Source of the DNA: a virus
Lineage: Duplodnaviria; Heunggongvirae; Uroviricota; Caudoviricetes
Virus record (IMG/VR): IMGVR_UViG_3300029647_000066
Strand: one strand, 5' to 3'
Length of the DNA stretch: 12,210 nt
The position numbers and the translations under genes are program-made. Below are positions 1 to 12,210 of the stretch, piece after piece. The notes under the pieces were generated by a model. It was given only the letters and a program-made list of their open reading frames with translations. It had not been told where the DNA came from and searched no databases. The stretch's first letter is position 1. Every line of letters begins with the position of its first letter.

Positions 1-166
1 AAAGGTGATAAAGCGAATACCTGGGCCGTCTACGGTTCCACAGGATTCAAAGGAGTGAATGCGACCAATAACTGACTTGGTAGCCCCCGCCGCAGCGGTA
101 TTTTCTGTTGTATTACAATTAGTTAAATTACTCATATCGCTTCAATTGGCTCTAGTTAACTCTGGT

Positions 167-1162
167 TTATGGACGCATTATGGACATTCCTGACACCGGG
201 TTAAGAGTCACAGCATCTTGTAAGAAATCCGGTGCAAAGTGTGCGTAGGTCATAGTTTGCTGAATGTTAGAATGACCCAGGATGCGCTGCAATGTGATTA
301 TGTTACCTCCATTCATTATAAAATGTGTGGCAAATGTATGCCTCAAAACATGCACTGCCTGTCCGTCAGGTAAATCGGGTTTTACTTCCCTGAGAGCGTT
401 GCGCACTTTGTAGTAACTGGCATTAAAAAGCCTGCCAGAATTTTTGGTTTTGATCCGTTTAATCAAGTCCTGCGAAACGGGAATTGTCCTGCGCTTTCCG
501 TTTTTAGTTTTCATAAACGTAACCATCTGGTTAATGATGTGTTCAGCTTTTAAATTAGACACTTCACTCCAGCGTCCACCAGTAGAAAGGCAGACCAGAG
601 TCGCATTTAATTCATCACCATCAAGCATGGATAACAGTCGCGTAATCTCTTCACTGGACAAAAAAGCCATTTCTGTAACAGCTTCACGTAACCGCTTAAC
701 CTCACGGAACGGGTTGTGAGAGTGGTATTCACCGGCGTCAATTAACTTGGTGAACATCCCGCTCATTATTGCCAGATGCCGATTTACGCTGGCTGGTTTT
801 AGACCATCGTTCATCATTACAACGCGATAATCAGTTATCGTTTTCTTTGTTAGCTGGTCAGCTCTGGACACTCCCATTTCTGCAAATTTGGCGATTATTG
901 TCGTTAAACGCCCCCGTTCAATATCTCCACGCTCATGTGATTTTCCGTGATATATCCACCATCTGCCTAACAACTCTGTAAGAGTTCGGCGGTCGGCTGG
1001 TTTCTCCAGCCACTCTTTGTTGTGGTAGTTAACCAGTACATGACGTCCGAATGCTTGAGCTTCACCTTTAGTTTTAAATTTCCGCCTGATACGTTTTCCA
1101 TCTGCACCCTGCGGTCTGACGTCCACTTCATAACGACCATCATCGAGCTTTTTAATAGACAT
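167..1162 (-). CDS. int: Tyrosine integrase, P2-family
   Basis: 331-aa ORF with ATG at 1162 preceded by GGAGGG. N-terminus MSIKKLDDGRYEVD and C-terminal HxLRHTFATH, ITLQRILGH and TYAHFAP motifs are typical of P2/186-type integrases. Same strand as, and downstream of, the C repressor as in P2. Confidence 0.9.
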   Translation of the reverse strand: MSIKKLDDGRYEVDVRPQGADGKRIRRKFKTKGEAQAFGRHVLVNYHNKEWLEKPADRRTLTELLGRWWIYHGKSHERGDIERGRLTTIIAKFAEMGVSRADQLTKKTITDYRVVMMNDGLKPASVNRHLAIMSGMFTKLIDAGEYHSHNPFREVKRLREAVTEMAFLSSEEITRLLSMLDGDELNATLVCLSTGGRWSEVSNLKAEHIINQMVTFMKTKNGKRRTIPVSQDLIKRIKTKNSGRLFNASYYKVRNALREVKPDLPDGQAVHVLRHTFATHFIMNGGNIITLQRILGHSNIQQTMTYAHFAPDFLQDAVTLNPVSGMSIMRP

Positions 1163-1255
1163 AAAGCCCTCCGATGACGCTGTTTACTTCTACTACTTGA
1201 AAATTAATGCAATTTTCTTTCGTACATTTACTACACACATATGCTGAATAAATCG

Positions 1256-1555
1256 TCAGCCAGTTTTCTGGTCTGAGTGGTGCAAGGTTGTTGAGTCTTG
1301 CCCAATGTGTGCGAGAGCCGGGGCTATTTGTCCAGCTGCTGGATCTGTTTCATCAAACATGAACCAGTCACGATACTTGCGAAAGCGTGGATGCTTAAAC
1401 AGCTTCATACCTGCTTCCATAGGCATTTTTGATTTTCCTGATTCATATCCATGATATGTGTAGTAATTAATTCCAATTAATTCAGCAAGTTCCTTAGTTT
1501 TAAGGCGTTCGGATTCACGGATGAGCTTTAGTTTTTCACTTTGTTCACTTGACAT
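1256..1555 (-). CDS. C: Immunity repressor, P2 C-type (HTH)
   Basis: The ORF track begins at a TTG at 1573; the first ATG is at 1555 and gives 99 aa. HTH segment LKTKELAELIGINYYTYHGYESGKS and the C-terminal GQIAPALAHIGQ motif match my recollection of P2 C. Divergent from the cox-like gene. Confidence 0.8.
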   Translation of the reverse strand: MSSEQSEKLKLIRESERLKTKELAELIGINYYTYHGYESGKSKMPMEAGMKLFKHPRFRKYRDWFMFDETDPAAGQIAPALAHIGQDSTTLHHSDQKTG

Positions 1556-1648
1556 AATTTTGCTAATCTCCAATTATATTGCTACTTGGCAATTTGTGAT
1601 TCACTCAAAAAGGCTCTAGAAGGCTCCAGTTGGTGAATCGCAAATCTT
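1556..1648. promoter_or_regulatory. Lysis/lysogeny switch region with divergent promoters and candidate operator repeats
   Basis: Intergenic region between divergent C and cox-like genes. Direct repeat AGGCTC at 1611-1616 and 1621-1626 (10-bp periodicity), flanked by an imperfect inverted pair GTGATTCAC (1596-1604) and GTGAATCGC (1633-1641). Exact -35/-10 elements not resolved. Confidence 0.5.
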
Positions 1649-2020
1649 ATGGAGGATAGCAAAGTGACGACAAATGTAGAAATTTCTTGTCCAACTAGCG
1701 ATGAGGCAAGTTTCGAAAATGAAGCCAAACGTAAAAGCATTCAGATTTCAGAGCGCCCATCTGATTTGCTGTCGAAAGAAGGTTTTGCTCTTTACATCGG
1801 TAAGACACCACGCGCGGTGGCTGAAATGGCTAAAGCAGGAAAGCTGCCAGCCTTCTACATGACAGACCCATTAAAACCAAGAGGGAAAGCTGAATTATGG
1901 ATTAATCGCCGTGAGTGGGACAAGTACGCAGCCCAACTGGTTGATGAAGCTCCGACAGAATGGCATGACTGGAAAAATCGCATTAGTTACAGCAAATCAA
2001 GACATGGCCGTGCGGCTTAA
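1649..2020 (+). CDS. cox: Cox-like excisionase / early-promoter regulator
   Basis: First gene of the rightward operon, divergent from C. Segment GFALYIGKTPRAVAEMAKAGKLPAFYMTDP resembles the Cox/AlpA-type HTH region. Start uncertain: an in-frame GTG at 1664 has a better-placed GGAGGA than the ATG at 1649. Confidence 0.7.
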   Translation: MEDSKVTTNVEISCPTSDEASFENEAKRKSIQISERPSDLLSKEGFALYIGKTPRAVAEMAKAGKLPAFYMTDPLKPRGKAELWINRREWDKYAAQLVDEAPTEWHDWKNRISYSKSRHGRAA

Positions 2021-2030
2021 GGTGGAAAGG

Positions 2031-2201
2031 ATGAACGAGCCTCGTTGTATTGCTCAGTTATTGCGTAACGAAAGCCCCAGGGCGATTGACTTCACCATCA
2101 CCCACGGAAAGGGTCGCAAGGGAATCATTATCCGCACCAAAAAACAGAGTCCGTTAAAAAAGGTTCTGACCTTTCTGAAAAGCCGGAGGGTATGGAAATG
2201 A
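2031..2201 (+). CDS. Small hypothetical early protein (P2 orf78 position)
   Basis: 57-aa ORF with ATG at 2031 after GGTGGAAAGG. Its stop overlaps the next start as ATGA (2198-2201), suggesting translational coupling. No recognisable domain. Confidence 0.4.
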   Translation: MNEPRCIAQLLRNESPRAIDFTITHGKGRKGIIIRTKKQSPLKKVLTFLKSRRVWK

Positions 2202-2698
2202 CAGTGATGACGCTCAATCTCGTTGAAAAACAGCCAACAACTATGCGCCGGATAATTGGTAAGCATCTGGCCGTCCCTCGCTGGCAGGAGACATGCGATT
2301 ATTATAATCAGATGATGGAACGCGAACGGTTAACGGTTTGCTTCCATGCGCAGTTAAAACAACGTCACGCAACGATGCGTTTTGAAGAAATGAACGACGT
2401 CGAACGTGAACGGCTGGTTTGTGCAATTGATGAACTGCGCGGGGCATTCTCAAAACGCCGTCAGGTCGGTGCAAGTGAGTATGCATATATTAGTTTTTTA
2501 ACAGTCAGTCAGCGTCGTACTTTATTTATGCATGCGGGATTGACAGAAAAAGAATTCAATCAGCCGTACTGGCGCATTAATGAAGAATCATGTTACTGGC
2601 GTGATGCTTTATTCCGTGCATTACGTGAATTATTCAGTCTGTTTGAGTATGCACCGACAATTCTGACGTCGGTAAAACCAGAGCAATATCTGCATTAA
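2198..2698 (+). CDS. Early replication-associated protein, assigned by position to the P2 gene B slot
   Basis: 166-aa ORF with ATG at 2198 seven nt after GGAGGG (the ATG at 2192 is too close to the SD). Same position and length as P2 B. Sequence similarity to B was not verified. Confidence 0.6.
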   Translation: MTVMTLNLVEKQPTTMRRIIGKHLAVPRWQETCDYYNQMMERERLTVCFHAQLKQRHATMRFEEMNDVERERLVCAIDELRGAFSKRRQVGASEYAYISFLTVSQRRTLFMHAGLTEKEFNQPYWRINEESCYWRDALFRALRELFSLFEYAPTILTSVKPEQYLH

Positions 2699-2761
2699 GT
2701 AATTAACCCGAGTTTTTAACGCACTTAATTGTGCGGGGCTTCTTTTTGCCTGGAGAAAGTC

Positions 2762-2986
2762 ATGCATACAGTTTCTGAAAATCAGTGCGGTAAATACGCA
2801 TTACTGCTGCAACAGGCCAGAACCGAAGCACAGGCCGACGCAGCGACGCGCTTCTCTTCTCATCTTGACGCCATGATTCGCCACATCACAAAGGCGGAGT
2901 TATCCCGCGTGGAGATAGTCGAGCTGCTCAGTCAGGAGTCGGAAAAATTTCACAATATCGGATTATCTCGCGGGGAGGTGCTTTGA
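2762..2986 (+). CDS. Small hypothetical early protein (P2 orf80 position)
   Basis: ORF track starts at a TTG at 2729; ATG at 2762 follows GGAGAAAG. 74 aa. Stop overlaps the next start (TGATG). Confidence 0.55.
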
Positions 2987-3288
2987 TGTCCTGTTCTCAT
3001 TCAGTTGTATTACTGAATAACGCCTTAAAAATCGCCGTTATGAAAAATGGCGATTTGTCTCTTATTCAGCTTGGTCTTGATAAAGAAAAACGCGAAATAA
3101 CTGAATCTGTTATCGCGATTTATCAGAACGAATTAAACCTCCTGTCTGATGTGGTCAATTTACTTGTGAAACGCGCTGTATTTAACAAGCAAATCTCCTC
3201 CGTGGATGAACTGACGAAATTAACGACAGAAATCGCCAGCTATTGCGCTGATGAATTTAAGAAGCTGAACGACAAAAGGAGCTGGTAA
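2986..3288 (+). CDS. Small hypothetical early protein (P2 orf81 position)
   Basis: ATG at 2986 seven nt after GGGGAGG. 100 aa. Stop overlaps the next start (TAATG). Confidence 0.6.
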   Translation: MSCSHSVVLLNNALKIAVMKNGDLSLIQLGLDKEKREITESVIAIYQNELNLLSDVVNLLVKRAVFNKQISSVDELTKLTTEIASYCADEFKKLNDKRSW

Positions 3289-3512
3289 TGCCGGACAACG
3301 TAGATTTTATTCAGGAACAACAGGCTGAATTACTGGAGCGCCAGATTAACGCGGCAAGGGTAAAACATTGCGGTGTTTCTGCGCTGGTTTGCGAAGAGTG
3401 TGACGCGCCAATACCTGCTGCCCGTCGTGCGGCTTATCCGTCAGCCACGCGTTGTGTTTCCTGTCAGTCAGTCTTTGAAGCAAAAAACAAACATTACCGG
3501 AGAATGGCATGA
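3288..3512 (+). CDS. TraR/DksA-family C4 zinc-finger protein (P2 orf82 position)
   Basis: 74 aa with CEEC...17 residues...CVSC, the C-x2-C-x17-C-x2-C spacing of TraR/DksA zinc fingers. AAAGGAG six nt upstream of the ATG. Translationally coupled on both sides. Confidence 0.75.
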   Translation: MPDNVDFIQEQQAELLERQINAARVKHCGVSALVCEECDAPIPAARRAAYPSATRCVSCQSVFEAKNKHYRRMA

Positions 3513-3784
3513 GCATTCGTATTGAAATTGGCGAACGTTATGTCGTTACCAGTGACAGCTTTCAGTTTATTCTCCACGAGAAAAAGAGAGCGGAAAGCGG
3601 TAAAAACGCCGGTCAGGAATGGCTGTCGGTGGTTGGTTATTACCCGAAATTAAGCCAGCTCGTTTCCGGCCTGATGCATCACGATATTCTGACCGGAAGC
3701 GCAAAGTCTTTTGCTGATTTAAACGCGCAGGTTGAGCAACTCAGCAGGCGTTGTTCAGAGGCTTTTGGCTCATATGGCCGTTAA
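3509..3784 (+). CDS. Small hypothetical early protein (P2 orf83 position)
   Basis: 91-aa ORF with ATG at 3509 overlapping the previous stop (ATGA). Its 3' end overlaps the gene A start by 11 nt. Confidence 0.6.
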   Translation: MSIRIEIGERYVVTSDSFQFILHEKKRAESGKNAGQEWLSVVGYYPKLSQLVSGLMHHDILTGSAKSFADLNAQVEQLSRRCSEAFGSYGR

Positions 3785-6059
3785 AGCCTCCGGGCGTTTT
3801 GTCCCTCCGTCAGCATTTGCCGCAGGCACCGGTAAGGCGTTTACCGGTGCTTATGCATGGAACGCGCCACGCGAGGCTGTCGGGCGCGAAAGACCCCTTA
3901 CACGTGACGAGATGCGTCAGGTGCAAGGTGTTTTATCCACGATTAACCGCCTGCCTTACTTTTTGCGCTCGCTGTTTACCTCACGCTATGACTACATCCG
4001 GCGCAATAAAAGCCCGGTGCACGGGTTTTATTTCCTCACATCCACTTTTCAGCGTCGTTTATGGCCGCGCATTGAGCGCGTGAATCAGCGCCATGAAATG
4101 AACACCGACGCGTCGTTGCTGTTTCTGGCAGAGCGTGACCATTATGCGCGTCTGCCGGGGGTGAATGACAAGGAACTGAAAAAGTTTGCCGCCCGTATCT
4201 CATCGCAGCTTTTCATGATGTATGAGGAACTCTGCGATGCATGGGTTGATGCACATGGCGAGAAAGAATCGCTGTTTACGGATGAGGCTCAGGCGCATCT
4301 GTATGGTCATGTTGCTGGCGCTGCACGAGCTTTCAATATTTCCCCTCTCTACTGGAAAAAATACCGTAAAGGACAGATGACCACGAGGCAGGCATATTCT
4401 GCCATTGCCCGTCTGTTTAACGATGAGTGGTGGATTCATCAGCTTAAAGGTCAGCGTATGCGCTGGCATGAGGCGTTACTGATTGCTGTCGGGGAGGTGA
4501 ATAAAGACCGTTCTCCTTATGCCAGTAAACATGCCATTCGTGATGTGCGTGCACGCCGCCAGGCAAATCTGGAATTTCTTAAATCGTGTGACCTTGAAAA
4601 CAGGGAAACCGGCGAGCGCATCGACCTTATCAGTAAGGTGATGGGCAGTATTTCTAATCCTGAAATTCGCCGGATGGAGCTGATGAACACCATTGCCGGT
4701 ATTGAGCGTTACGCCGCCGCAGAGGGTGATGTGGGGATGTTTATCACGCTGACCGCGCCGTCAAAGTATCACCCGACACGTCAGGTCGGAAAAGGCGAAA
4801 GTAAAACCGTCCAGCTAAATCACGGCTGGAACGATGAGGCATTTAATCCAAAGGATGCGCAGCGTTATCTCTGCCGTATCTGGAGCCTGATGCGCACGGC
4901 ATTCAAGGATAATGATTTACAGGTCTACGGTTTGCGTGTCGTCGAGCCACACCACGACGGAACGCCGCACTGGCATATGATGCTTTTTTGTAATCCACGC
5001 CAGCGTAACCAGATTATCGAAATCATGCGTCGCTATGCGCTCAAAGAGGATGGCGACGAAAGAGGAGCCGCGCGAAACCGTTTTCAGGCAAAACACCTTA
5101 ACCGGGGCGGTGCTGCGGGGTATATCGCGAAATACATCTCAAAAAACATCGATGGCTATGCACTGGATGGTCAGCTCGATAACGATACCGGCAGACCGCT
5201 GAAAGACACTGCTGCGGCTGTTACCGCATGGGCGTCAACGTGGCGCATCCCACAATTTAAAACGGTTGGTCTGCCGACAATGGGGGCTTACCGTGAACTA
5301 CGCAAATTGCCTCGCGGCGTCAGCATTGCTGATGAGTTTGACGAACGCGTTGAGGCTGCACGTGCCGCCGCAGACAGTGGTGATTTTGCGTTGTATATCA
5401 GCGCGCAGGGTGGGGCAAATGTTCCGCGTGATTGTCAGACTGTCAGGGTTGCCCGTAGTCCGTCGGATGACGTTAACGAGTACGAGGAAGAAGTCGAGAG
5501 AGTGGTCGGCATTTACGCGCCGCATCTCGGCGCGCGTCATATTCATATCACCAGAACGACGGACTGGCGCATTGTGCCGAAAGTTCCGGTCGTTGAGCCT
5601 TTGACTTTAAAAAGCGGCATCGCCGCGCCTCGGAGTCCTGTCAATAACTGTGGAAAGCTCACCGGTGGTGATACTTCGTTACCGGCTCCCACACCTTCTG
5701 AGCACGCCGCAGCCGTGCTTAATCTGGTTGATGACGGTGTTATCGAATGGAATGACCCGGAGGTCGTGAGGGCGCTCAGGGGCGCATTAAAACACGGCCT
5801 GAGAACACCAAACCGTCAGCAAAGAAACGGAAGCCCGTTAAAACCGAATGAAATAGCGCCATCGGCCAGGCTGACCCGGTCGGAGCGTATGCAAATTACC
5901 CGTATCCGCGTTGACCTTGCTCAGAACGGTATCAGGCCGCAGCGATGGGAGCTTGAGGCGCTGGCGCGTGGCGCGACCGTAAATTATGACGGGAAAAAAT
6001 TCACGTATCCGGTCGCTGATGAGTGGCCGGGATTCTCAACAGTAATGGAGTGGAAATGA
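3774..6059 (+). CDS. A: Rolling-circle replication initiator endonuclease, P2 gene A family
   Basis: ORF track starts at 3732, but the internal ATG at 3774 (MAVKASGRF) gives 761 aa and avoids a long overlap with the upstream gene. HUH-type motif in GLRVVEPHHDGTPHWHMMLF and paired-tyrosine motif in AAGYIAKYISKNIDGY are hallmarks of phiX174/P2 A-type initiators. Confidence 0.9.
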   Translation: MAVKASGRFVPPSAFAAGTGKAFTGAYAWNAPREAVGRERPLTRDEMRQVQGVLSTINRLPYFLRSLFTSRYDYIRRNKSPVHGFYFLTSTFQRRLWPRIERVNQRHEMNTDASLLFLAERDHYARLPGVNDKELKKFAARISSQLFMMYEELCDAWVDAHGEKESLFTDEAQAHLYGHVAGAARAFNISPLYWKKYRKGQMTTRQAYSAIARLFNDEWWIHQLKGQRMRWHEALLIAVGEVNKDRSPYASKHAIRDVRARRQANLEFLKSCDLENRETGERIDLISKVMGSISNPEIRRMELMNTIAGIERYAAAEGDVGMFITLTAPSKYHPTRQVGKGESKTVQLNHGWNDEAFNPKDAQRYLCRIWSLMRTAFKDNDLQVYGLRVVEPHHDGTPHWHMMLFCNPRQRNQIIEIMRRYALKEDGDERGAARNRFQAKHLNRGGAAGYIAKYISKNIDGYALDGQLDNDTGRPLKDTAAAVTAWASTWRIPQFKTVGLPTMGAYRELRKLPRGVSIADEFDERVEAARAAADSGDFALYISAQGGANVPRDCQTVRVARSPSDDVNEYEEEVERVVGIYAPHLGARHIHITRTTDWRIVPKVPVVEPLTLKSGIAAPRSPVNNCGKLTGGDTSLPAPTPSEHAAAVLNLVDDGVIEWNDPEVVRALRGALKHGLRTPNRQQRNGSPLKPNEIAPSARLTRSERMQITRIRVDLAQNGIRPQRWELEALARGATVNYDGKKFTYPVADEWPGFSTVMEWK

Positions 6060-6511
6060 TGGCAAAAATTCACGAGGTAAAGCTGCACGCAAAATATTTT
6101 GACCTTGTGCTGGAAGGAAAGAAACGCGCAGAGTTTCGGAAAAATGACCGTAATTATGAGCGCGGGGACACGTTGATTTTGCATGAATGGGTGCAGGGTG
6201 TGTATACGGGGCGAAAGGTTGAAGCCCGGATAACAGATGTTACTGACTTGTCAGACTGGCTGGAAGATTATGTCTTGCTAAGTATTGAGCTGCTTAATAC
6301 AGGCGCATATGAGTTTGTGAACTGGAAAGAACTTAGTGAGCGTGGTCTGGTATTCAGAATTAATCATGAAATTATGCATCAGCTCGGCCTTGCTGTTGTG
6401 TATGAACCAGAGACGGGGATGTCTGGCGGGGCAGTGGTTGGTGCGGATGGGATATGGAACTATTCAGATGAACAGGTGGAGCGTGCACAGCAAAACGGGT
6501 GGCTTGGATAA
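6056..6511 (+). CDS. ASCH / DUF3850-like domain protein
   Basis: ORF track starts at a GTG at 6023; the ATG at 6056 overlaps the A stop (ATGA) and follows GGAG. N-terminal KIHEVKLHAKYFDLVLEGKKRAEFRKNDRNYERGDTLILHEW fits the DUF3850/ASCH pattern common in phage genomes. C-terminal half uncharacterised. Confidence 0.7.
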   Translation: MMAKIHEVKLHAKYFDLVLEGKKRAEFRKNDRNYERGDTLILHEWVQGVYTGRKVEARITDVTDLSDWLEDYVLLSIELLNTGAYEFVNWKELSERGLVFRINHEIMHQLGLAVVYEPETGMSGGAVVGADGIWNYSDEQVERAQQNGWLG

Positions 6512-6717
6512 TGCACAGAATACCAGGCGAGATACCGCAGCATAAAACTAAAAATATCAAGCTGATGGCCATTGTTCACCGTCTACAGCAGATTATGGTC
6601 AACGAAAATCTGACGCCCGATGAGCTGGTCGGGTGTGCCGAAATAGTCCGGGATAATTACGTATGGCTTAACTATATCGGTCAGCCCAGCGCTGCACCGC
6701 CACCACGCAGACGATAG
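6511..6717 (+). CDS. Small hypothetical protein
   Basis: ORF track starts at a GTG at 6499; the ATG at 6511 overlaps the previous stop (TAATG). 68 aa, no recognisable domain. Last ORF before the compositional shift to AT-rich DNA. Confidence 0.4.
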   Translation: MHRIPGEIPQHKTKNIKLMAIVHRLQQIMVNENLTPDELVGCAEIVRDNYVWLNYIGQPSAAPPPRRR

Positions 6718-7025
6718 AGAACGCAGCCAGCTCAGGATTGGCGGGGGATAGAATAACGAGCATAGTGATGCGATTAGACAAACAGACTGACTGGTACACT
6801 TAGGATGGTTATAGTGGTTTCTAAGTGCTTTAGCGATACATCTGGTGGACTGTTTTACCAACCTCAGAGTTAGCTGAATTTTTAACAAAATACCATTTTG
6901 ATAGATTTGCCTAATTTATTAATTAAACTATACTGGACTTATACACAGTGTTCTGTTAATTGTTAGGTTGGTAAGATATTGTGAGGAGGTGATTACTATC
7001 TTGGCATCAATCAAGTGGAGGTTAA

Positions 7026-7262
7026 ATGATGAATATATTTGAACGTATTATAGGTAAAGCTGCTATTGAAAAGGAAAGAGAACTGGCGAGGAGGCTTGAA
7101 GCATCTGGAACAAACACTGTTGAGGTGGTAGGTCGAGGCGCGATTATCACGTCTAAAGAAGACTTGGCAAGCTCAGATACAGTAAAATTGATGAAAATTA
7201 AAGCAAGAAAAATAGTTTCTGAGCAGGTAAAGCAAGAAGAAAAAATGGCTAAAGGGAATTAA
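7026..7262 (+). CDS. Small charged hypothetical protein, first gene of the rightward cargo operon
   Basis: 78-aa ORF, Lys/Glu-rich and probably helical. GGAGG at 7017-7021 four nt before the ATG. AT-rich codon usage unlike the backbone. The next gene starts 3 nt after its stop. Confidence 0.6.
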   Translation: MMNIFERIIGKAAIEKERELARRLEASGTNTVEVVGRGAIITSKEDLASSDTVKLMKIKARKIVSEQVKQEEKMAKGN

Positions 7263-7264
7263 TA

Positions 7265-8026
7265 ATGTTTGCTTTATTAATTATTCCATTACTTGTGAGT
7301 GGTTATATTGTATTAACCACTCATCCTTATCATTTCTATAGATTACACCGTTATGATGGGCAGTTGTTATATATGAAGTCAGCCGCCTTTGGTCTGTGGT
7401 GTTTTATATGGACATTGATTATAGCTTACTTAATAAAATGGATATGTCCTAGCTTCCATCCTGTCACGATGGTTCGGGAACAATTAGATCTCAAACTTAG
7501 TGACAATGGTACTGAAAGAATCATAGGATGGATGATTTTACTTTCATGTGGAACGATATTTTTGGCTTGGATATGGAGTGTCGGTGCTAGATATTTGGTT
7601 ATATATAGAGCTAAAATTATAAATTATATCCAAGGGGTAAAGGCTGCCAATATTGATTATGAGAATCTTGTCATGCTAAGGATGAGGCAAGAGCTTATTA
7701 ATGATAATCCAATGGATGAAATATTTTTTGATTCGTTAGTTGATAGACGTTCAATACTTATTACGTTGCAAAATAAAAAGACATATGTAGGAATTGTTAA
7801 CGCATTAGGTGAGCCTAACGAGAAAGAAGGACCTAACCAGTATGTTTCAATCTATCCTATTATCTCTGGGTATAGAGATAAGGATTCATTGAAAGTAATC
7901 TTGGTGAATGAATATAGAGAGCTTGAGGATGCTGATACTAGTATCATCTTTCCACTAAAAGAAATTTCGCAAGTTTCTTGGTTTGATATGGATATTCATA
8001 AAATAGTTGAAAATAATAAGGTGTAG
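7265..8026 (+). CDS. Predicted integral membrane protein (about 3 TM helices N-terminal, soluble C-terminal domain), function unknown
   Basis: 253-aa ORF with AAGGGA seven nt before the ATG. Hydrophobic segments FALLIIPLLVSGYIVL, AAFGLWCFIWTLIIAYLIKWI and IIGWMILLSCGTIFLAWIWSVGA, followed by a hydrophilic domain of about 130 aa. AT-rich. Ends just before a hairpin shared with the convergent operon. Confidence 0.7.
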   Translation: MFALLIIPLLVSGYIVLTTHPYHFYRLHRYDGQLLYMKSAAFGLWCFIWTLIIAYLIKWICPSFHPVTMVREQLDLKLSDNGTERIIGWMILLSCGTIFLAWIWSVGARYLVIYRAKIINYIQGVKAANIDYENLVMLRMRQELINDNPMDEIFFDSLVDRRSILITLQNKKTYVGIVNALGEPNEKEGPNQYVSIYPIISGYRDKDSLKVILVNEYRELEDADTSIIFPLKEISQVSWFDMDIHKIVENNKV

Positions 8027-8029
8027 TAA

Positions 8030-8054
8030 ATGGTCACCTATAAAAGGTGACCAT
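8030..8054. terminator. Bidirectional hairpin terminator between the convergent cargo operons
   Basis: Perfect 10-bp inverted repeat ATGGTCACCT (8030-8039) and AGGTGACCAT (8045-8054) with a 5-nt loop. It sits between the stop of the + gene (8026) and the stop of the - gene (8060), with T-rich sequence downstream on the + strand and A-rich sequence upstream. Confidence 0.6.
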
Positions 8055-8059
8055 AATGC

Positions 8060-10324
8060 TTATTTTTGACGAATCCTGATTTTTGGTTGTTCACGAACAA
8101 CAATATCAGTTTCTTTCCAACCAAGATTATTTATTTCAACCTCGGCTTCGTTGTAGACTGTAGTAGAATTGGCAAGAGATCTTAACGTAATAGCCAATAC
8201 AGCACGTTGAGGTGAAGATAGAGGCTCTTGCTCTGCTCGTCTCTGAACATCAAGTTTAAGTCTCCATTGCTCCCCATTTATACCTTGCGGAAATTGTTTT
8301 CTATAAACTTTGACTGGAGACCATTTGAAGCCATTTTCTATCAGTACCTTTTCAAATAATTCACTCTTTTCTTTTATTTGTGGAATTTTTCCGCTATGTA
8401 TCCATTTAGCGTTAACTGGATCATAAGTGTAAGTCCCGAATGACACATCCACATTAGAACGGCAATATTCAGATGGGTAGTCATAATCAAGCGGTGGAGA
8501 ATAAACGAGTGTCATAATAATTTCACCTGTGAATTTTCCATCCTCAGTACGTAATGACTGTGGTATTACAAATGGCGTTCTACTGAATTCAATACCTTCT
8601 CGGGTATCTATTTCAAATAGAAATGTAATCTCATTTTTATTGCAACCAATAATATCATTTATATGATCGCTTGGGCGTCCAAATCCTTGATAATTAAACG
8701 CATAATGCTCCGTTTTGGCTGGTGAGTTTTTTAACGCAGAATGAATTAATAGTGCCTTGATACGTTCAGGCGATGGTGAAATAGAACCATTAACATCTAG
8801 TTCATGCCACAGTGATGCCGCTAAACTTGAGATTAACGGTGCTGATAAACTTGTGCCAATACTTTCGCAAAGAGCATTGTCCTCGCCAATAGCTATGATT
8901 CCGGTATGTTCACAGTTTAATTTACTGTCACAATTACCTCCAAAGTGATTTATCTCTGGTTTGGGTATAAAGGCTGGGCCGGGACCTCTTCTAGAAAAAG
9001 ATGAAGGTTCAAATCTTTTGACCACAGAGTCAGACGATTCTAAATGGGCAACTGAGCCAACAGTTAATGAACGAACAGAATCTGCGGGGGCTGATATTCT
9101 GTCATGCCCACCTAATTCTTGAGGAGGCCAGGTTCGTTGAGGATCATAAATGTAGTTGCCGGATGCTACGACGAAAAGACAATCATGCTCATCATGAAGT
9201 GCATTTAAAAAATGCCCCAATTCAGAGAAGCTGTCTTCAGAACATGGGGATTGACAACCTAATGACAGATTCCATACACGTACTTCTGGATAGGTGGTCA
9301 CAGCCTCTCGGATAGCTTTCATTAATTGTGGCAATTTGAGCGTACCATCTTTGGGAAAGGCTGCAACATCAACAATTTCAGCTTGGCATTGAGGAAAACC
9401 AGCATAGTTATTCAACCATCTTCCATTAATTGCTAAACTTGCAACCATGTTCCCATGAGAATAGTCGTGTTCTCCTTTTACTAAATCTAAACTATCCCAA
9501 ATCCATGGCCTAAGTATGTTGTTATTGGGATCGACTCCGCTATCTATAATTCCGAGTAGTGGATAATGTTTATCCTCTTGAGGTAAGGGAAAATCATCTA
9601 GGTCTAGAGTTTCAGCAGGAATATATTGCGATACTGTATGAGTAAGACCAAATGTTGGCATAGGTTCTAATTTTCGTATGCCAATAAAACTTGCCAGTTG
9701 GGCGATGTTATCATTCCCTTTTACTTCATATATACTCAAATCTGAACTGATATCATACTTTTTGGGTTTTTGTATTCCTAGTTCATCTGCAAATTCCATT
9801 AATTCTTTGTCGATACTGCGGTTAGTTGTTCTATCTTTATGGTCAAAGAGTTTCAGAAGAAAACTATCTGATTTATTTTTATCTATAACATCATGGTTAA
9901 GACTAAAAGGTTCGATCTTTTCAATTACAGCAATATGTACTGTCCCATTATGAGAATTAGTGCTATTTTCAATTTTTTTGCGAAGTTGTGCTAACCCTTT
10001 TTCAGTAACACTTATAAGTAATTCTCCAAAATTATCACTGCCTATTACGGGACATGTATTATCACCTAATAGGCTTGATGGGCGATGTGACTTAGCAAGA
10101 GCTTTTTCATGAAGAGTAACTCTAGCCACCGCCGGTATATTGGGCCATTTTTTAAATGAGCTCTGGAAAAAATTTTTAACGTCATCGACTTCTTGTTTGA
10201 GTCTATTTTTTAGACTAGTTGTTACTGTTCGGATAGGTTGTTTCTTTCCGAAATTATATGTTTTTTCAGTAAAATCTTGAGGTGTCGCCTCAATTATTTT
10301 TATTGGTCTTTCTTTGTTACTCAT
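8060..10324 (-). CDS. Subtilisin-like serine peptidase (S8 family), predicted cytoplasmic, with N- and C-terminal extension domains
   Basis: 754-aa ORF. S8 catalytic motifs in canonical order: Asp in LLGIIDSGVD (about residue 261), His in DYSHGNMVASLA (about 290), oxyanion Asn in FVVASGNY (about 390), Ser in GTSLSAPLISSLAASL (about 492). No N-terminal hydrophobic signal sequence. Its ATG overlaps the stop of the upstream ATPase gene (ATGA at 10321-10324). Confidence 0.9.
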   Translation of the reverse strand: MSNKERPIKIIEATPQDFTEKTYNFGKKQPIRTVTTSLKNRLKQEVDDVKNFFQSSFKKWPNIPAVARVTLHEKALAKSHRPSSLLGDNTCPVIGSDNFGELLISVTEKGLAQLRKKIENSTNSHNGTVHIAVIEKIEPFSLNHDVIDKNKSDSFLLKLFDHKDRTTNRSIDKELMEFADELGIQKPKKYDISSDLSIYEVKGNDNIAQLASFIGIRKLEPMPTFGLTHTVSQYIPAETLDLDDFPLPQEDKHYPLLGIIDSGVDPNNNILRPWIWDSLDLVKGEHDYSHGNMVASLAINGRWLNNYAGFPQCQAEIVDVAAFPKDGTLKLPQLMKAIREAVTTYPEVRVWNLSLGCQSPCSEDSFSELGHFLNALHDEHDCLFVVASGNYIYDPQRTWPPQELGGHDRISAPADSVRSLTVGSVAHLESSDSVVKRFEPSSFSRRGPGPAFIPKPEINHFGGNCDSKLNCEHTGIIAIGEDNALCESIGTSLSAPLISSLAASLWHELDVNGSISPSPERIKALLIHSALKNSPAKTEHYAFNYQGFGRPSDHINDIIGCNKNEITFLFEIDTREGIEFSRTPFVIPQSLRTEDGKFTGEIIMTLVYSPPLDYDYPSEYCRSNVDVSFGTYTYDPVNAKWIHSGKIPQIKEKSELFEKVLIENGFKWSPVKVYRKQFPQGINGEQWRLKLDVQRRAEQEPLSSPQRAVLAITLRSLANSTTVYNEAEVEINNLGWKETDIVVREQPKIRIRQK

Positions 10325-11484
10325 AATATCTCTCTATAGTTCTTAGTTAGCCTTGACACTTTAGCATTTGAAAGCCCTAGTATTTTTGCTATCTTTCGTA
10401 TTGTAAATCTTTTGGGATTGTATTCTCTGAGAGTGGTCACAATCTTTATAAGTAAATTATCTTCTTCATCAAATGTAACTCCCTTCGCTTCTAAGATAGC
10501 CTCGACTAAAAATCGGGTATCGATTTGTTTATTATTGTAAACCAGAGCATGTCGCTCAGATCTTAAGCAGCATTGTTCTATAAATGAGCAGTTTAGCCCT
10601 GATGATATTTCCGCAAGGTCATCAACAAAATCGTCATATGTAGCTTTTATGTTTGAATATTGTTCAAATAGTTGTTTTCTGACTTCAAAATCAGGCAATC
10701 CAATAGATATTCTATACTCAAAGCGCCTCCAAACTGCGCTATCTAGAAGATTTTCATGATTACTTGCAGCAATCAATATTGTTTCTTCAGGTAGATTGTC
10801 AATATTTTGCAATAAAGAAACCACCACCCTCTTCAGTTCACCTAACTCATGCTGATCATCTCTAGCCTTTGCTAGAGAATCTAGTTCATCTAGAAATAAA
10901 ACACATGGTGCTTTACTTGCATACTCAAATAGCTGCCTGATATTTTTAGAAGTAGACCCCAGATATGATGAGACTAAGGAGTCACATCTTGCAGTAAGAA
11001 GCGGTAAATTTAGACAGGATGCAATATATTTTGATGTCAAGGTTTTACCACAACCTGGTGGCCCATATAAAATCATAGAGGATGTCACGCCAAGACCGGC
11101 ATCCTTTAATTCTTTAGCTCGTTCAGTGAAAGTCAAAAATTCTTTAATTTTTTTCAGAGTGCTATCTTTCAACAATGGGAGTTGAATTTCAGAAGACGGT
11201 TGAGTTACGTCTGCTAAATCAAATTTAGTTTCTTTATCTACAGGTAATGTATCAAGACGTTCAAAAATAGGTGATGTACTGCGTGATACTTTCTGCAAGT
11301 TAAACGTGTTTTTATCTTGAATACTACCTCTAATGGCTGAAGCAAGCTCAGGCAGCCCCATAGAATCATAGGAACGCGCGAGTTTCGAAGCCTGCCGAAC
11401 AAAAGCAACTTTATCCCCTTTGAGTCCAAGACTGATAAGCTGCGAAAGTATCTCGTTTGTGGTCATTTGTGATACAAACCTCAT
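10321..11484 (-). CDS. AAA+ ATPase (classic-clade AAA domain) with C-terminal HTH-like tail
   Basis: 387-aa ORF. Walker A in LYGPPGCGKT (about residue 147), Walker B in CVLFLDELD (about 199-200), second-region-of-homology-like segment in AASNHENLLDSAVWRRFEYRISIGLP. C-terminal RKIAKILGLSNAKVSRLTKNY resembles a helix-turn-helix. First gene of the leftward cargo operon; start could instead be the second ATG at 11466. Confidence 0.9.
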   Translation of the reverse strand: MRFVSQMTTNEILSQLISLGLKGDKVAFVRQASKLARSYDSMGLPELASAIRGSIQDKNTFNLQKVSRSTSPIFERLDTLPVDKETKFDLADVTQPSSEIQLPLLKDSTLKKIKEFLTFTERAKELKDAGLGVTSSMILYGPPGCGKTLTSKYIASCLNLPLLTARCDSLVSSYLGSTSKNIRQLFEYASKAPCVLFLDELDSLAKARDDQHELGELKRVVVSLLQNIDNLPEETILIAASNHENLLDSAVWRRFEYRISIGLPDFEVRKQLFEQYSNIKATYDDFVDDLAEISSGLNCSFIEQCCLRSERHALVYNNKQIDTRFLVEAILEAKGVTFDEEDNLLIKIVTTLREYNPKRFTIRKIAKILGLSNAKVSRLTKNYREIL

Positions 11485-11725
11485 TAATCTGTTGTCTAAA
11501 TGGCTTATAGGTGAGACAAATTTCTATTTTAATGTAGTTTATATGTATTTTGGTGAAACGAACACTATGTTTTACATAAATCTTTCAGGTTTGGAGTTCT
11601 TGGAGGGCATAGAGTTGCATCAATTTGCATTCTAATTAGACTTTTTTATTGCTATCGTATTCTACATGTGACTAGGTCTGCCCTTCCTGATGCGTTTGCA
11701 TTAAAACCTCCCCATGAAGCGGGCG

Positions 11726-11744
11726 GGCGAGGCGGGGAAAGCAC
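11726..11744 (+). other. cos site (P2-type 19-nt cohesive end)
   Basis: GGCGAGGCGGGGAAAGCAC is present exactly and matches the P2 cohesive-end sequence as I recall it. It lies in a GC-rich block just after the cargo island, where the P2 map places cos (after the tin/old slot). Confidence 0.6.
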
Positions 11745-11883
11745 TGCGCGCTGGCGGTGGTGCTGATTTTATTTTTTCAGCGTCTGAGCGCGTCTTGATG
11801 GCGTTTAGATTGTGCGCCGGGGCGTTGGTGTGTCTGCGGGGTGTTTTGTGCGGTGGTGAGCGTGTGAGGGCGTGATGACGGGG

Positions 11884-11908
11884 TGTAAAAAAGCCGCCCG
11901 CAGGCGGC
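11884..11908 (-). terminator. Rho-independent terminator for the leftward transcript ending near cos
   Basis: GC hairpin GCCGCC (11893-11898) and GGCGGC (11903-11908) with loop CGCA. On the minus strand it is followed by a run of six T (plus-strand AAAAAA at 11886-11891). It sits 5 nt downstream of the stop of the minus-strand ORF ending at 11914. Confidence 0.5.
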
Positions 11909-11913
11909 GATGT

Positions 11914-12126
11914 TCAGCCGTTGTCAGTGTCCAGTGAGTAGTTTTTAAAGCGGATGACCTCCTGGCCGAGCCAGCCGTTTATTTCCCGAATCCTGTCCTG
12001 TAACGGGATAAGTTCATTGCGGACAAAGACCTTTGCCACTTTCTCAATATCACCCAGCGACCCGACGTTCTCCGGCTTGCCGCCCATCAACTGAAAGGGG
12101 ATGCGGTGCGCGTTGCGTATTTTCAT
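11914..12126 (-). CDS. Hypothetical 70-aa protein, last ORF of a leftward transcription unit next to cos; may be a fragment of a larger late gene
   Basis: Complete ORF by ATG and stop, but with no Shine-Dalgarno and an in-frame stop 3 codons upstream. Backbone-like GC content and followed by a terminator. In P2 the leftward portal gene ends near cos, so this could be the 3' portion of an interrupted portal-like gene. Not verifiable here. Confidence 0.35.
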   Translation of the reverse strand: MKIRNAHRIPFQLMGGKPENVGSLGDIEKVAKVFVRNELIPLQDRIREINGWLGQEVIRFKNYSLDTDNG

Positions 12127-12210
12127 GAAAGGAGATCACTCAATAACTTCCATCGAGATCGGGTAATAACATTTGAACAGATCGCTGAATAACATCGATG
12201 GAGATCACTT

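Follow-up and report, generated by a model that had tools for sequence, protein, structure and literature searches.

The ends of IS21-family insertion sequences consist of multiple direct repeats (L1/L2 and R1/R2) at 23-bp spacing, and each repeat holds two conserved blocks that IstA reads in the major groove with its HTH-1 and HTH-2 domains (PMC10122671). For integration, each end must hold two complete repeats, and the target is duplicated over 5 bp at insertions (PMC10122671). An IstA tetramer synapses both ends, while IstB decamers bend the target DNA (PMC10122671, PMC11208146). ISEc12 has in common with IS21 and IS5376 the 23-bp direct repeats, the two blocks per repeat, the terminal CA, and the 5-bp duplications. 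The left end of ISEc12 and its relatives holds four units in phase and a fifth that is inverted, whereas the studied prototype was described with two. The inner block also differs: in ISEc12 it is GATC(A/G)C, which contains a Dam site, while the IS5376 blocks are GC-rich by the description in the paper (PMC10122671).

The stretch of DNA analyzed here, referred to as the window, is 12,210 nt long. On the phage side, the closest described system is P2, in which cos, tQ, and the 3' end of Q follow one another as they do here, at ~ 97% DNA identity. The portal gene Q is intact in P2, while in the window it is cut, with only its last 65 codons contiguous. Judging from the sequence, ISEc12 (IS21 family, 2581 bp) has very probably transposed into gene Q of a P2-like prophage adjoining pflA. 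The inactivation of a prophage by an insertion sequence is an ordinary event, and the visible part of ISEc12 shows no difference from complete copies; only the insertion site is new.

The junction between gene Q and ISEc12

The closest intact relative of the prophage is found in E. coli DCE7, where it occupies the same site adjoining pflA. It is 98.7% identical to the window over 1-12113, and its portal gene is uninterrupted at this point and encodes 344 aa. Window positions 1-166 correspond to the 3' end of the chromosomal pflA region, and the prophage integrase follows at 167-1162 on the minus strand. P2-type DNA spans 11698-12113 and includes cos, the terminator tQ, and, on the minus strand, the final 65 codons of Q. 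The fragment lies where gpQ is encoded in P2, as the last gene of the P operon, ending beside tQ and cos. A complete ~344-codon gpQ ORF was not found in the window, and the 65 contiguous codons represent a gene fragment, not a functional member of the family. The features around the junction are as follows.

11726-11744, no strand: P2-type cohesive end (cos), GGCGAGGCGGGGAAAGCAC, identical to bases 1-19 of P2 (AF063097), there annotated as cosL
11893-11908, minus strand: tQ, the rho-independent terminator past Q, GCCGCC-TGCG-GGCGGC then TTTTTT, found by terminator scan and aligning with the annotated tQ of P2 at 160-181
11914-12113, minus strand: 3' remnant of Q (the stop, the 65 codons before it, and 2 nt of one codon more), 96-97% identical in DNA to P2-like phages across their annotated portal gene up to 12113; the reverse-strand reading of Q begins at 11914 in the alignment with AF063097
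11914-12126, minus strand: chimeric 70-aa ORF, not a gene, from its translation and comparison with the intact portal
12109-12113, no strand: CGCGT, which would be the left copy of a 5-bp target-site duplication, predicted from the 5-bp duplications of other ISEc12 copies
12114-12210, plus strand: left terminal inverted repeat of ISEc12, of which the first 97 nt, starting with TG, are visible, at 97/97 identity

When positions 11600-12210 were compared with 50,697 phage records by megablast, P2-type similarity ended at 12113. A total of 80 P2-like phages matched at 94-97% identity, and all of these matches ended at 12113, over the annotated portal gene. In the alignment, ...GGTGCGCGTCCAGCAGG... 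is found both in P2 (AF063097) and in the intact relative, and the window has ...GGTGCGCGT up to the breakpoint and TGCGTATTTTCATG... beyond it. Put another way, GCGCGT is followed by CCAGCAGG in P2 gene Q and by TGCGTATT in the window; the intact Q at the target site (12109-12113) reads GCGCGTCCAGC. The breakpoint between 12113 and 12114 lies 200 nt from the Q 3' end, and istA is directed away from cos. The TG terminus of the element occupies 12114-12115, exactly where P2 similarity stops. The earlier note, made from the letters of the window, had suggested a disrupted portal-like gene in a cryptic prophage, which is supported by portal similarity stopping at 12113 and the ISEc12 left end beginning at 12114. 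Its other suggestion, an insertion scar, was right about the insertion and wrong about the scar, since what begins at 12114 is the terminal inverted repeat of a most likely whole, live IS.

The 97 nt are identical at every position to the left ends of three complete 2581-bp copies annotated as ISEc12 in RefSeq, in which istA and istB follow. Of 5426 complete E. coli genomes, 2447 contain this sequence, both in chromosomes and in plasmids, with a median of 2 and a maximum of 16 places per genome; the identity is 99% or higher in 1848 records. Where records are annotated, the istA and istB genes of "IS21-like element ISEc12" follow it directly. A MITE or solo repeat was considered, as many matches to the 97 nt are unannotated, and was rejected. 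In every complete copy examined, the 97 nt fall within a 193-nt untranslated leader upstream of istA that carries no annotated feature, which is the likely reason for the unannotated matches. Complete ISEc12 starts TGCGTATTTTCATGAAAGGAGATC and ends GATCTCCTTCACGGTAATACGCA over its 2581 bp. Its CA terminus lies outside the window and is known from identical complete copies (7350-7351 in the copy at locus L001). The genes of the complete copies match rve and Mu-transpos_C_2 (IstA) and IstB_IS21 at 2e-67 in Pfam. These copies are flanked by 5-bp target duplications, GCGCG at L001, GCCTT at L003, and GGGGA at L004, and 5-bp duplications were also observed in the related elements at L010 and L048.

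The window ends 97 nt into ISEc12, and the right junction and the 5' part of Q would lie outside it. Contigs break at the ends of multicopy insertion sequences, which explains why the sequence stops at 12210. On the basis of five comparable cases, described below, the most likely continuation past 12210 is a complete ISEc12 followed by the rest of Q. The right flank past the element would then read ...AATACGCA joined to CGCGTCCAGCAGG, with the duplicate of CGCGT and the remaining ~ 835 nt of Q. The exact junction had no match in the 5426 complete E. coli genomes, nor in IMG/VR or JGI metagenome contigs, the latter two being searched with a gapped junction pattern.

The 70-aa ORF on the minus strand (11914-12126) translates as MKIRNAHRIPFQLMGGKPENVGSLGDIEKVAKVFVRNELIPLQDRIREINGWLGQEVIRFKNYSLDTDNG. 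The IS end contributes its first 13 nt including the ATG, ATGAAAATACGCA (12126-12114), and all that follows encodes the C-terminus of the portal. From residue 6 to residue 70, the ORF shows no difference from the final 65 residues of the 344-aa DCE7 portal; in intact relatives, these codons are the end of the portal gene and not an independent conserved gene. As the earlier note had remarked, the ORF has no Shine-Dalgarno match and an in-frame stop just upstream. On the minus strand the sequence upstream of the ATG reads ...GAGTGATCTCCTTTC, and the stop is a TGA 12 nt upstream, within IS unit L1. No promoter-like site was found near the ORF in our scan. A Pfam search with the 70-aa ORF returned no family above threshold, only a sub-threshold chance match to Ribosomal_L9_N. 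The portal Pfam model is too long for such a fragment, and its identity was therefore settled by DNA and protein comparison with intact portals. RefSeq names the equivalent fragment in E. coli BCE-1 "portal protein, incomplete, missing N-terminus" and treats it as a pseudogene. The three minus-strand frames of 12127-12210 are all short or interrupted, and none of them extends a long gene. Read from its sequence, the ORF is an accident of the junction, in which an ATG supplied by the IS shares, by chance, the reading frame of the 65 remaining portal codons, and it should not be annotated as a gene.

Repeat units of the ISEc12 end and their predicted role

The repeats reported in the earlier note were recovered, and their extent had to be corrected: the block does not span 12127-12210 but begins at 12114, inside the ORF. 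The decamer GGAGATCACT occurs at 12131-12140 and 12200-12209, where 0.03 occurrences are expected and 2 were reached in 0 of 200 shuffles. AATAACAT also occurs twice, at 12165 and 12188, which alone is unremarkable (45 of 200 shuffles reach 2). The four GATC sites at 12134, 12157, 12180, and 12203 are spaced exactly 23 bp apart. We found that these repeats make up four 23-bp-phased units, L1-L4, which the first reading had missed. Tandem Repeats Finder likewise reported a period of 23 on the identical sequence at L001.

12114-12140, plus strand: unit L1, TGCG + TATTTTCATGAAAGGAGATCACT, with GATC at 12134; its inverted-repeat partner is R1 at the L001 right end
12141-12163, plus strand: unit L2, CAATAACTTCCATCGAGATCGGG, with GATC at 12157
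12164-12186, plus strand: unit L3, TAATAACATTTGAACAGATCGCT, with GATC at 12180; the most degenerate unit
12187-12209, plus strand: unit L4, GAATAACATCGATGGAGATCACT, with GATC at 12203

By analogy with the described ends, GGAGATCACT and AATAAC(A/T)T would be the inner and outer conserved blocks of predicted IstA-binding units. The right end of complete copies has two phased units and an inverted one inside the 3' end of istB. At the left end, L4 pairs with an inverted fifth unit that lies 20 bp further on in complete copies, past the window edge. Complete ISEc12 thus has an extra inverted terminal-type unit at each end (4887-4908 and 7252-7267 at L001), and that at 4887-4908 forms with L4 a 22-nt inverted repeat that is 95% complementary. 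This left-end unit might serve as an operator of istA expression. The proposal that the GATC cluster serves phage regulation has to be given up, the cluster belonging to the ISEc12 end. GATC is strongly depleted in the P2-type part, with 11 sites in the other 12.1 kb (1-12113) against an expectation, for the whole window, of ~ 46 from dinucleotide-preserving shuffles. Against this depletion, the four sites within the 97 nt of the IS are all the more conspicuous.

If ISEc12 behaves as work on IS5376 suggests, a tetramer of IstA, with its two helix-turn-helix domains, would assemble on units of the L1-L4 type and synapse the two ends. The AAA+ ATPase IstB would bend the target, and integration would give the 5-bp duplication. 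A split Q would leave no functional portal, and the prophage would then be unable to package its DNA and be locked in. Given the established role of the portal, the prophage can probably make no particles, and we suggest that the portal gene be annotated as interrupted and the prophage as probably defective.

A prophage locked in this way would keep its immunity genes and its defence cargo. The cargo at 8060-11484 is an IetA/IetS anti-phage defence system, which the probably defective prophage still carries. The variable cargo slot, located between gene A and cos, holds IetS (8060-10324, minus strand), an S8 peptidase (PADLOC, 1e-273), and IetA (10321-11484, minus strand), an AAA ATPase (PADLOC, 9e-132). 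In the other P2-like prophages examined, the cargo of this slot is different, for example DUF7380, HIRAN together with an exonuclease, or a cytosine methyltransferase accompanied by an ATP-binding protein.

ISEc12 in other P2-type portal genes

Including the window, we identified six independent insertions of ISEc12 in P2-type Q, in both orientations. The loci are L001 (4771), L004 (5203), L003 (5355), L060 (~3811), NZ_CP187189.1 (H101), and the window (12092-12114).

STE15: 188 nt from the Q 3' end, same orientation as the window
BCE-1: 199 nt from the Q 3' end, same orientation as the window
Window: 200 nt from the Q 3' end, reference orientation
EcPF20: ~ 297 nt from the Q 3' end, opposite orientation to the window
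S6: 341 nt from the Q 3' end, same orientation as the window
22AR0010: ~ 740 nt from the Q 3' end, opposite orientation to the window

In BCE-1, S6, and STE15, ISEc12 interrupts the Q of three different P2-like prophages with different cargo genes, and their Q fragments differ from that of the window at 2-6 of 189 positions. When the element and one copy of the duplication were removed in silico, a 344-aa portal was restored in all three, matching the DCE7 portal at 344/345, 342/345, and 341/344 positions. The insertion in the window is an independent event, as its site is offset by 1 bp from the BCE-1 site, which lies in a different P2-like prophage, and by 12 bp from the STE15 site. We considered whether the window and BCE-1 might share a single insertion and rejected this, the junction being 1 bp off, with 4 of 189 Q positions differing and different cargo. 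An apparent orientation bias, all of the first three cases being alike, was an artifact of query design; a query for the opposite orientation gave two more insertions.

Three of the six insertions fall within 12 bp of one another, for which P is ~ 0.01 if insertion is uniform, in a small sample that was seeded by the window itself. Beside these clustered insertions, TGAAAGGGGATG at 12092-12103 weakly resembles TGAAAGGAGATC in L1, with ~ 1.2 chance matches expected in the window, and a 16-mer version of this L1-like target match gave no hit outside the IS; the resemblance is kept as a weak idea. A preferred ISEc12 target in P2-type Q is a weaker possibility than the gating by Dam considered below. 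The recurrent insertion of ISEc12 in the P2 portal gene is nonetheless a side result of wider interest. A near-identical prophage (98.6%) was also seen in E. coli E302 (NZ_AP022362.1, H86). There, ISEc12 seems to sit not in Q but in gene A, which encodes the replication endonuclease, as its match row lists the replication endonuclease twice together with istA and ~ 2.5 kb more than the query. If so, it would be another independent ISEc12 insertion in the same prophage type.

These cases also bear on what may lie past the window edge. After the insertion, recombination between copies of ISEc12, or an adjacent deletion or inversion mediated by the element, could have eliminated the late genes and the remainder of Q or moved them elsewhere, leaving a prophage truncated at 12113 or a solo IS end. 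The window ends within the IS, with nothing beyond it known, and ISEc12, at a median of 2 and a maximum of 16 places per genome, offers substrates for recombination; truncated copies also exist, such as one with an istA pseudogene at L002. We nevertheless consider such a rearrangement unlikely, because the five other cases of ISEc12 in Q are all simple insertions in which both portal fragments flank a complete IS, precise excision restores Q in three of the five, and the visible 97 nt are identical to intact copies. Another possibility is that a short-read prophage contig was misjoined to a collapsed multicopy IS end. A stop 97 nt into a multicopy repeat is typical of short-read contigs, and none of the collections searched contains the exact junction, yet a random misjoin would not respect the IS terminus. 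The junction lies exactly at the TG, as in true transposition, and complete genomes have verified insertions at distances of 1 and 12 bp, so that an assembly artifact is very improbable.

We give still less credence to reading the 70-aa ORF as an independent small late gene beside cos, with the repeats as a Dam-responsive regulatory region of the phage. An ATG-initiated ORF of 70 codons does exist, with four GATC sites just upstream, but its residues 6-70 are the C-terminus of a 344-aa portal, none of the 80 matching P2-like phage records contains the sequence past 12113, and the latter is the end of an IS that also occurs, in unrelated surroundings, on chromosomes and on plasmids. The missing Shine-Dalgarno and promoter-like sites and the in-frame stop point the same way, and the chance that this reading is correct is close to nil. 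A simple insertion of ISEc12 into Q is the reading that we prefer.

Dam sites in the terminal units of ISEc12 and its relatives

In ISEc12, one GATC is present in each of L1-L4 and in R1 and R2. Relatives of the element were found with ISEc12 IstA, taking one genome per species. Left ends (~ 170-220 nt upstream of istA) were compared at loci L010, L016, L021, L031, and L033, and right ends at L010 and L048, with L041, L043, and L053 as contrast loci. Elements from Psychromonadaceae, Psychrobium, Pseudoalteromonas, Aeromonas, and Rheinheimera have IstA proteins that are 55-59% identical to that of ISEc12. GATC(A/G)C is kept in nearly every unit of these relatives, including those of Enterobacterales, while the rest of the unit has diverged; the unit sequences around it, by lineage, are GGAGATCAC, GCTGATCAC, TTTGATCAC, and GCCGATCAC.

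Several of the 55-59% relatives have four left units at 23-24-bp spacing, every one of them with a GATC, and in many cases another GATC, the fifth, 30 bp on. A GATC 30 bp past that of L4, seen in several distant relatives, matches the position of the inverted unit at the ISEc12 left end. Two Pseudoalteromonas elements have only two phased units and a third GATC 30 bp on, and Rheinheimera SA_1 has one unit without GATC. On the right, the Psychromonadaceae end (two copies), which is the only one from a relative lineage to be confidently located, has three units, all with GATC; in one Pseudoalteromonas right end, GATC was present in only one of two units. The IstA proteins of three relatives at a greater distance (Nitrosomonas, a Francisellaceae MAG, and an unclassified MAG) are 47-52% identical, and these elements retain 23-bp units, three to five in number. 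In place of the GATC block they have GCTGCCAC or TCGAACAC, with no GATC; in the Nitrosomonas and Francisellaceae elements, GCCAC or GAACAC takes the place of GATC(A/G)C. We take the GATC-bearing hosts to belong to the Dam/SeqA/MutH group of Gammaproteobacteria, to which the hosts of the elements without GATC probably do not belong.

The pattern of GATC(A/G)C fits either a plain recognition core for IstA or gating by Dam. That Dam methylation gates the binding of IstA, and hence transpososome assembly, is a tentative reading of these sequences that we regard as possible and rather doubtful. A search of the literature found no report linking Dam with the IS21 family or with IstA. If Dam gating were true, transposition would be coupled to the passage of the replication fork, as in IS10, through all 6-9 predicted binding sites together. 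The conservation of the Dam sites is the only lead here that we consider worth an experiment, and structures of IS21 transpososomes now exist.

IS10, IS50, IS903, and IS3 are Dam-regulated, and the effect of methylation has been demonstrated for them. Like ISEc12, they carry GATC inside terminal transposase-binding sequences, which in ISEc12 are predicted. They have one or two GATC sites per end or promoter, whereas ISEc12 has one in every unit.
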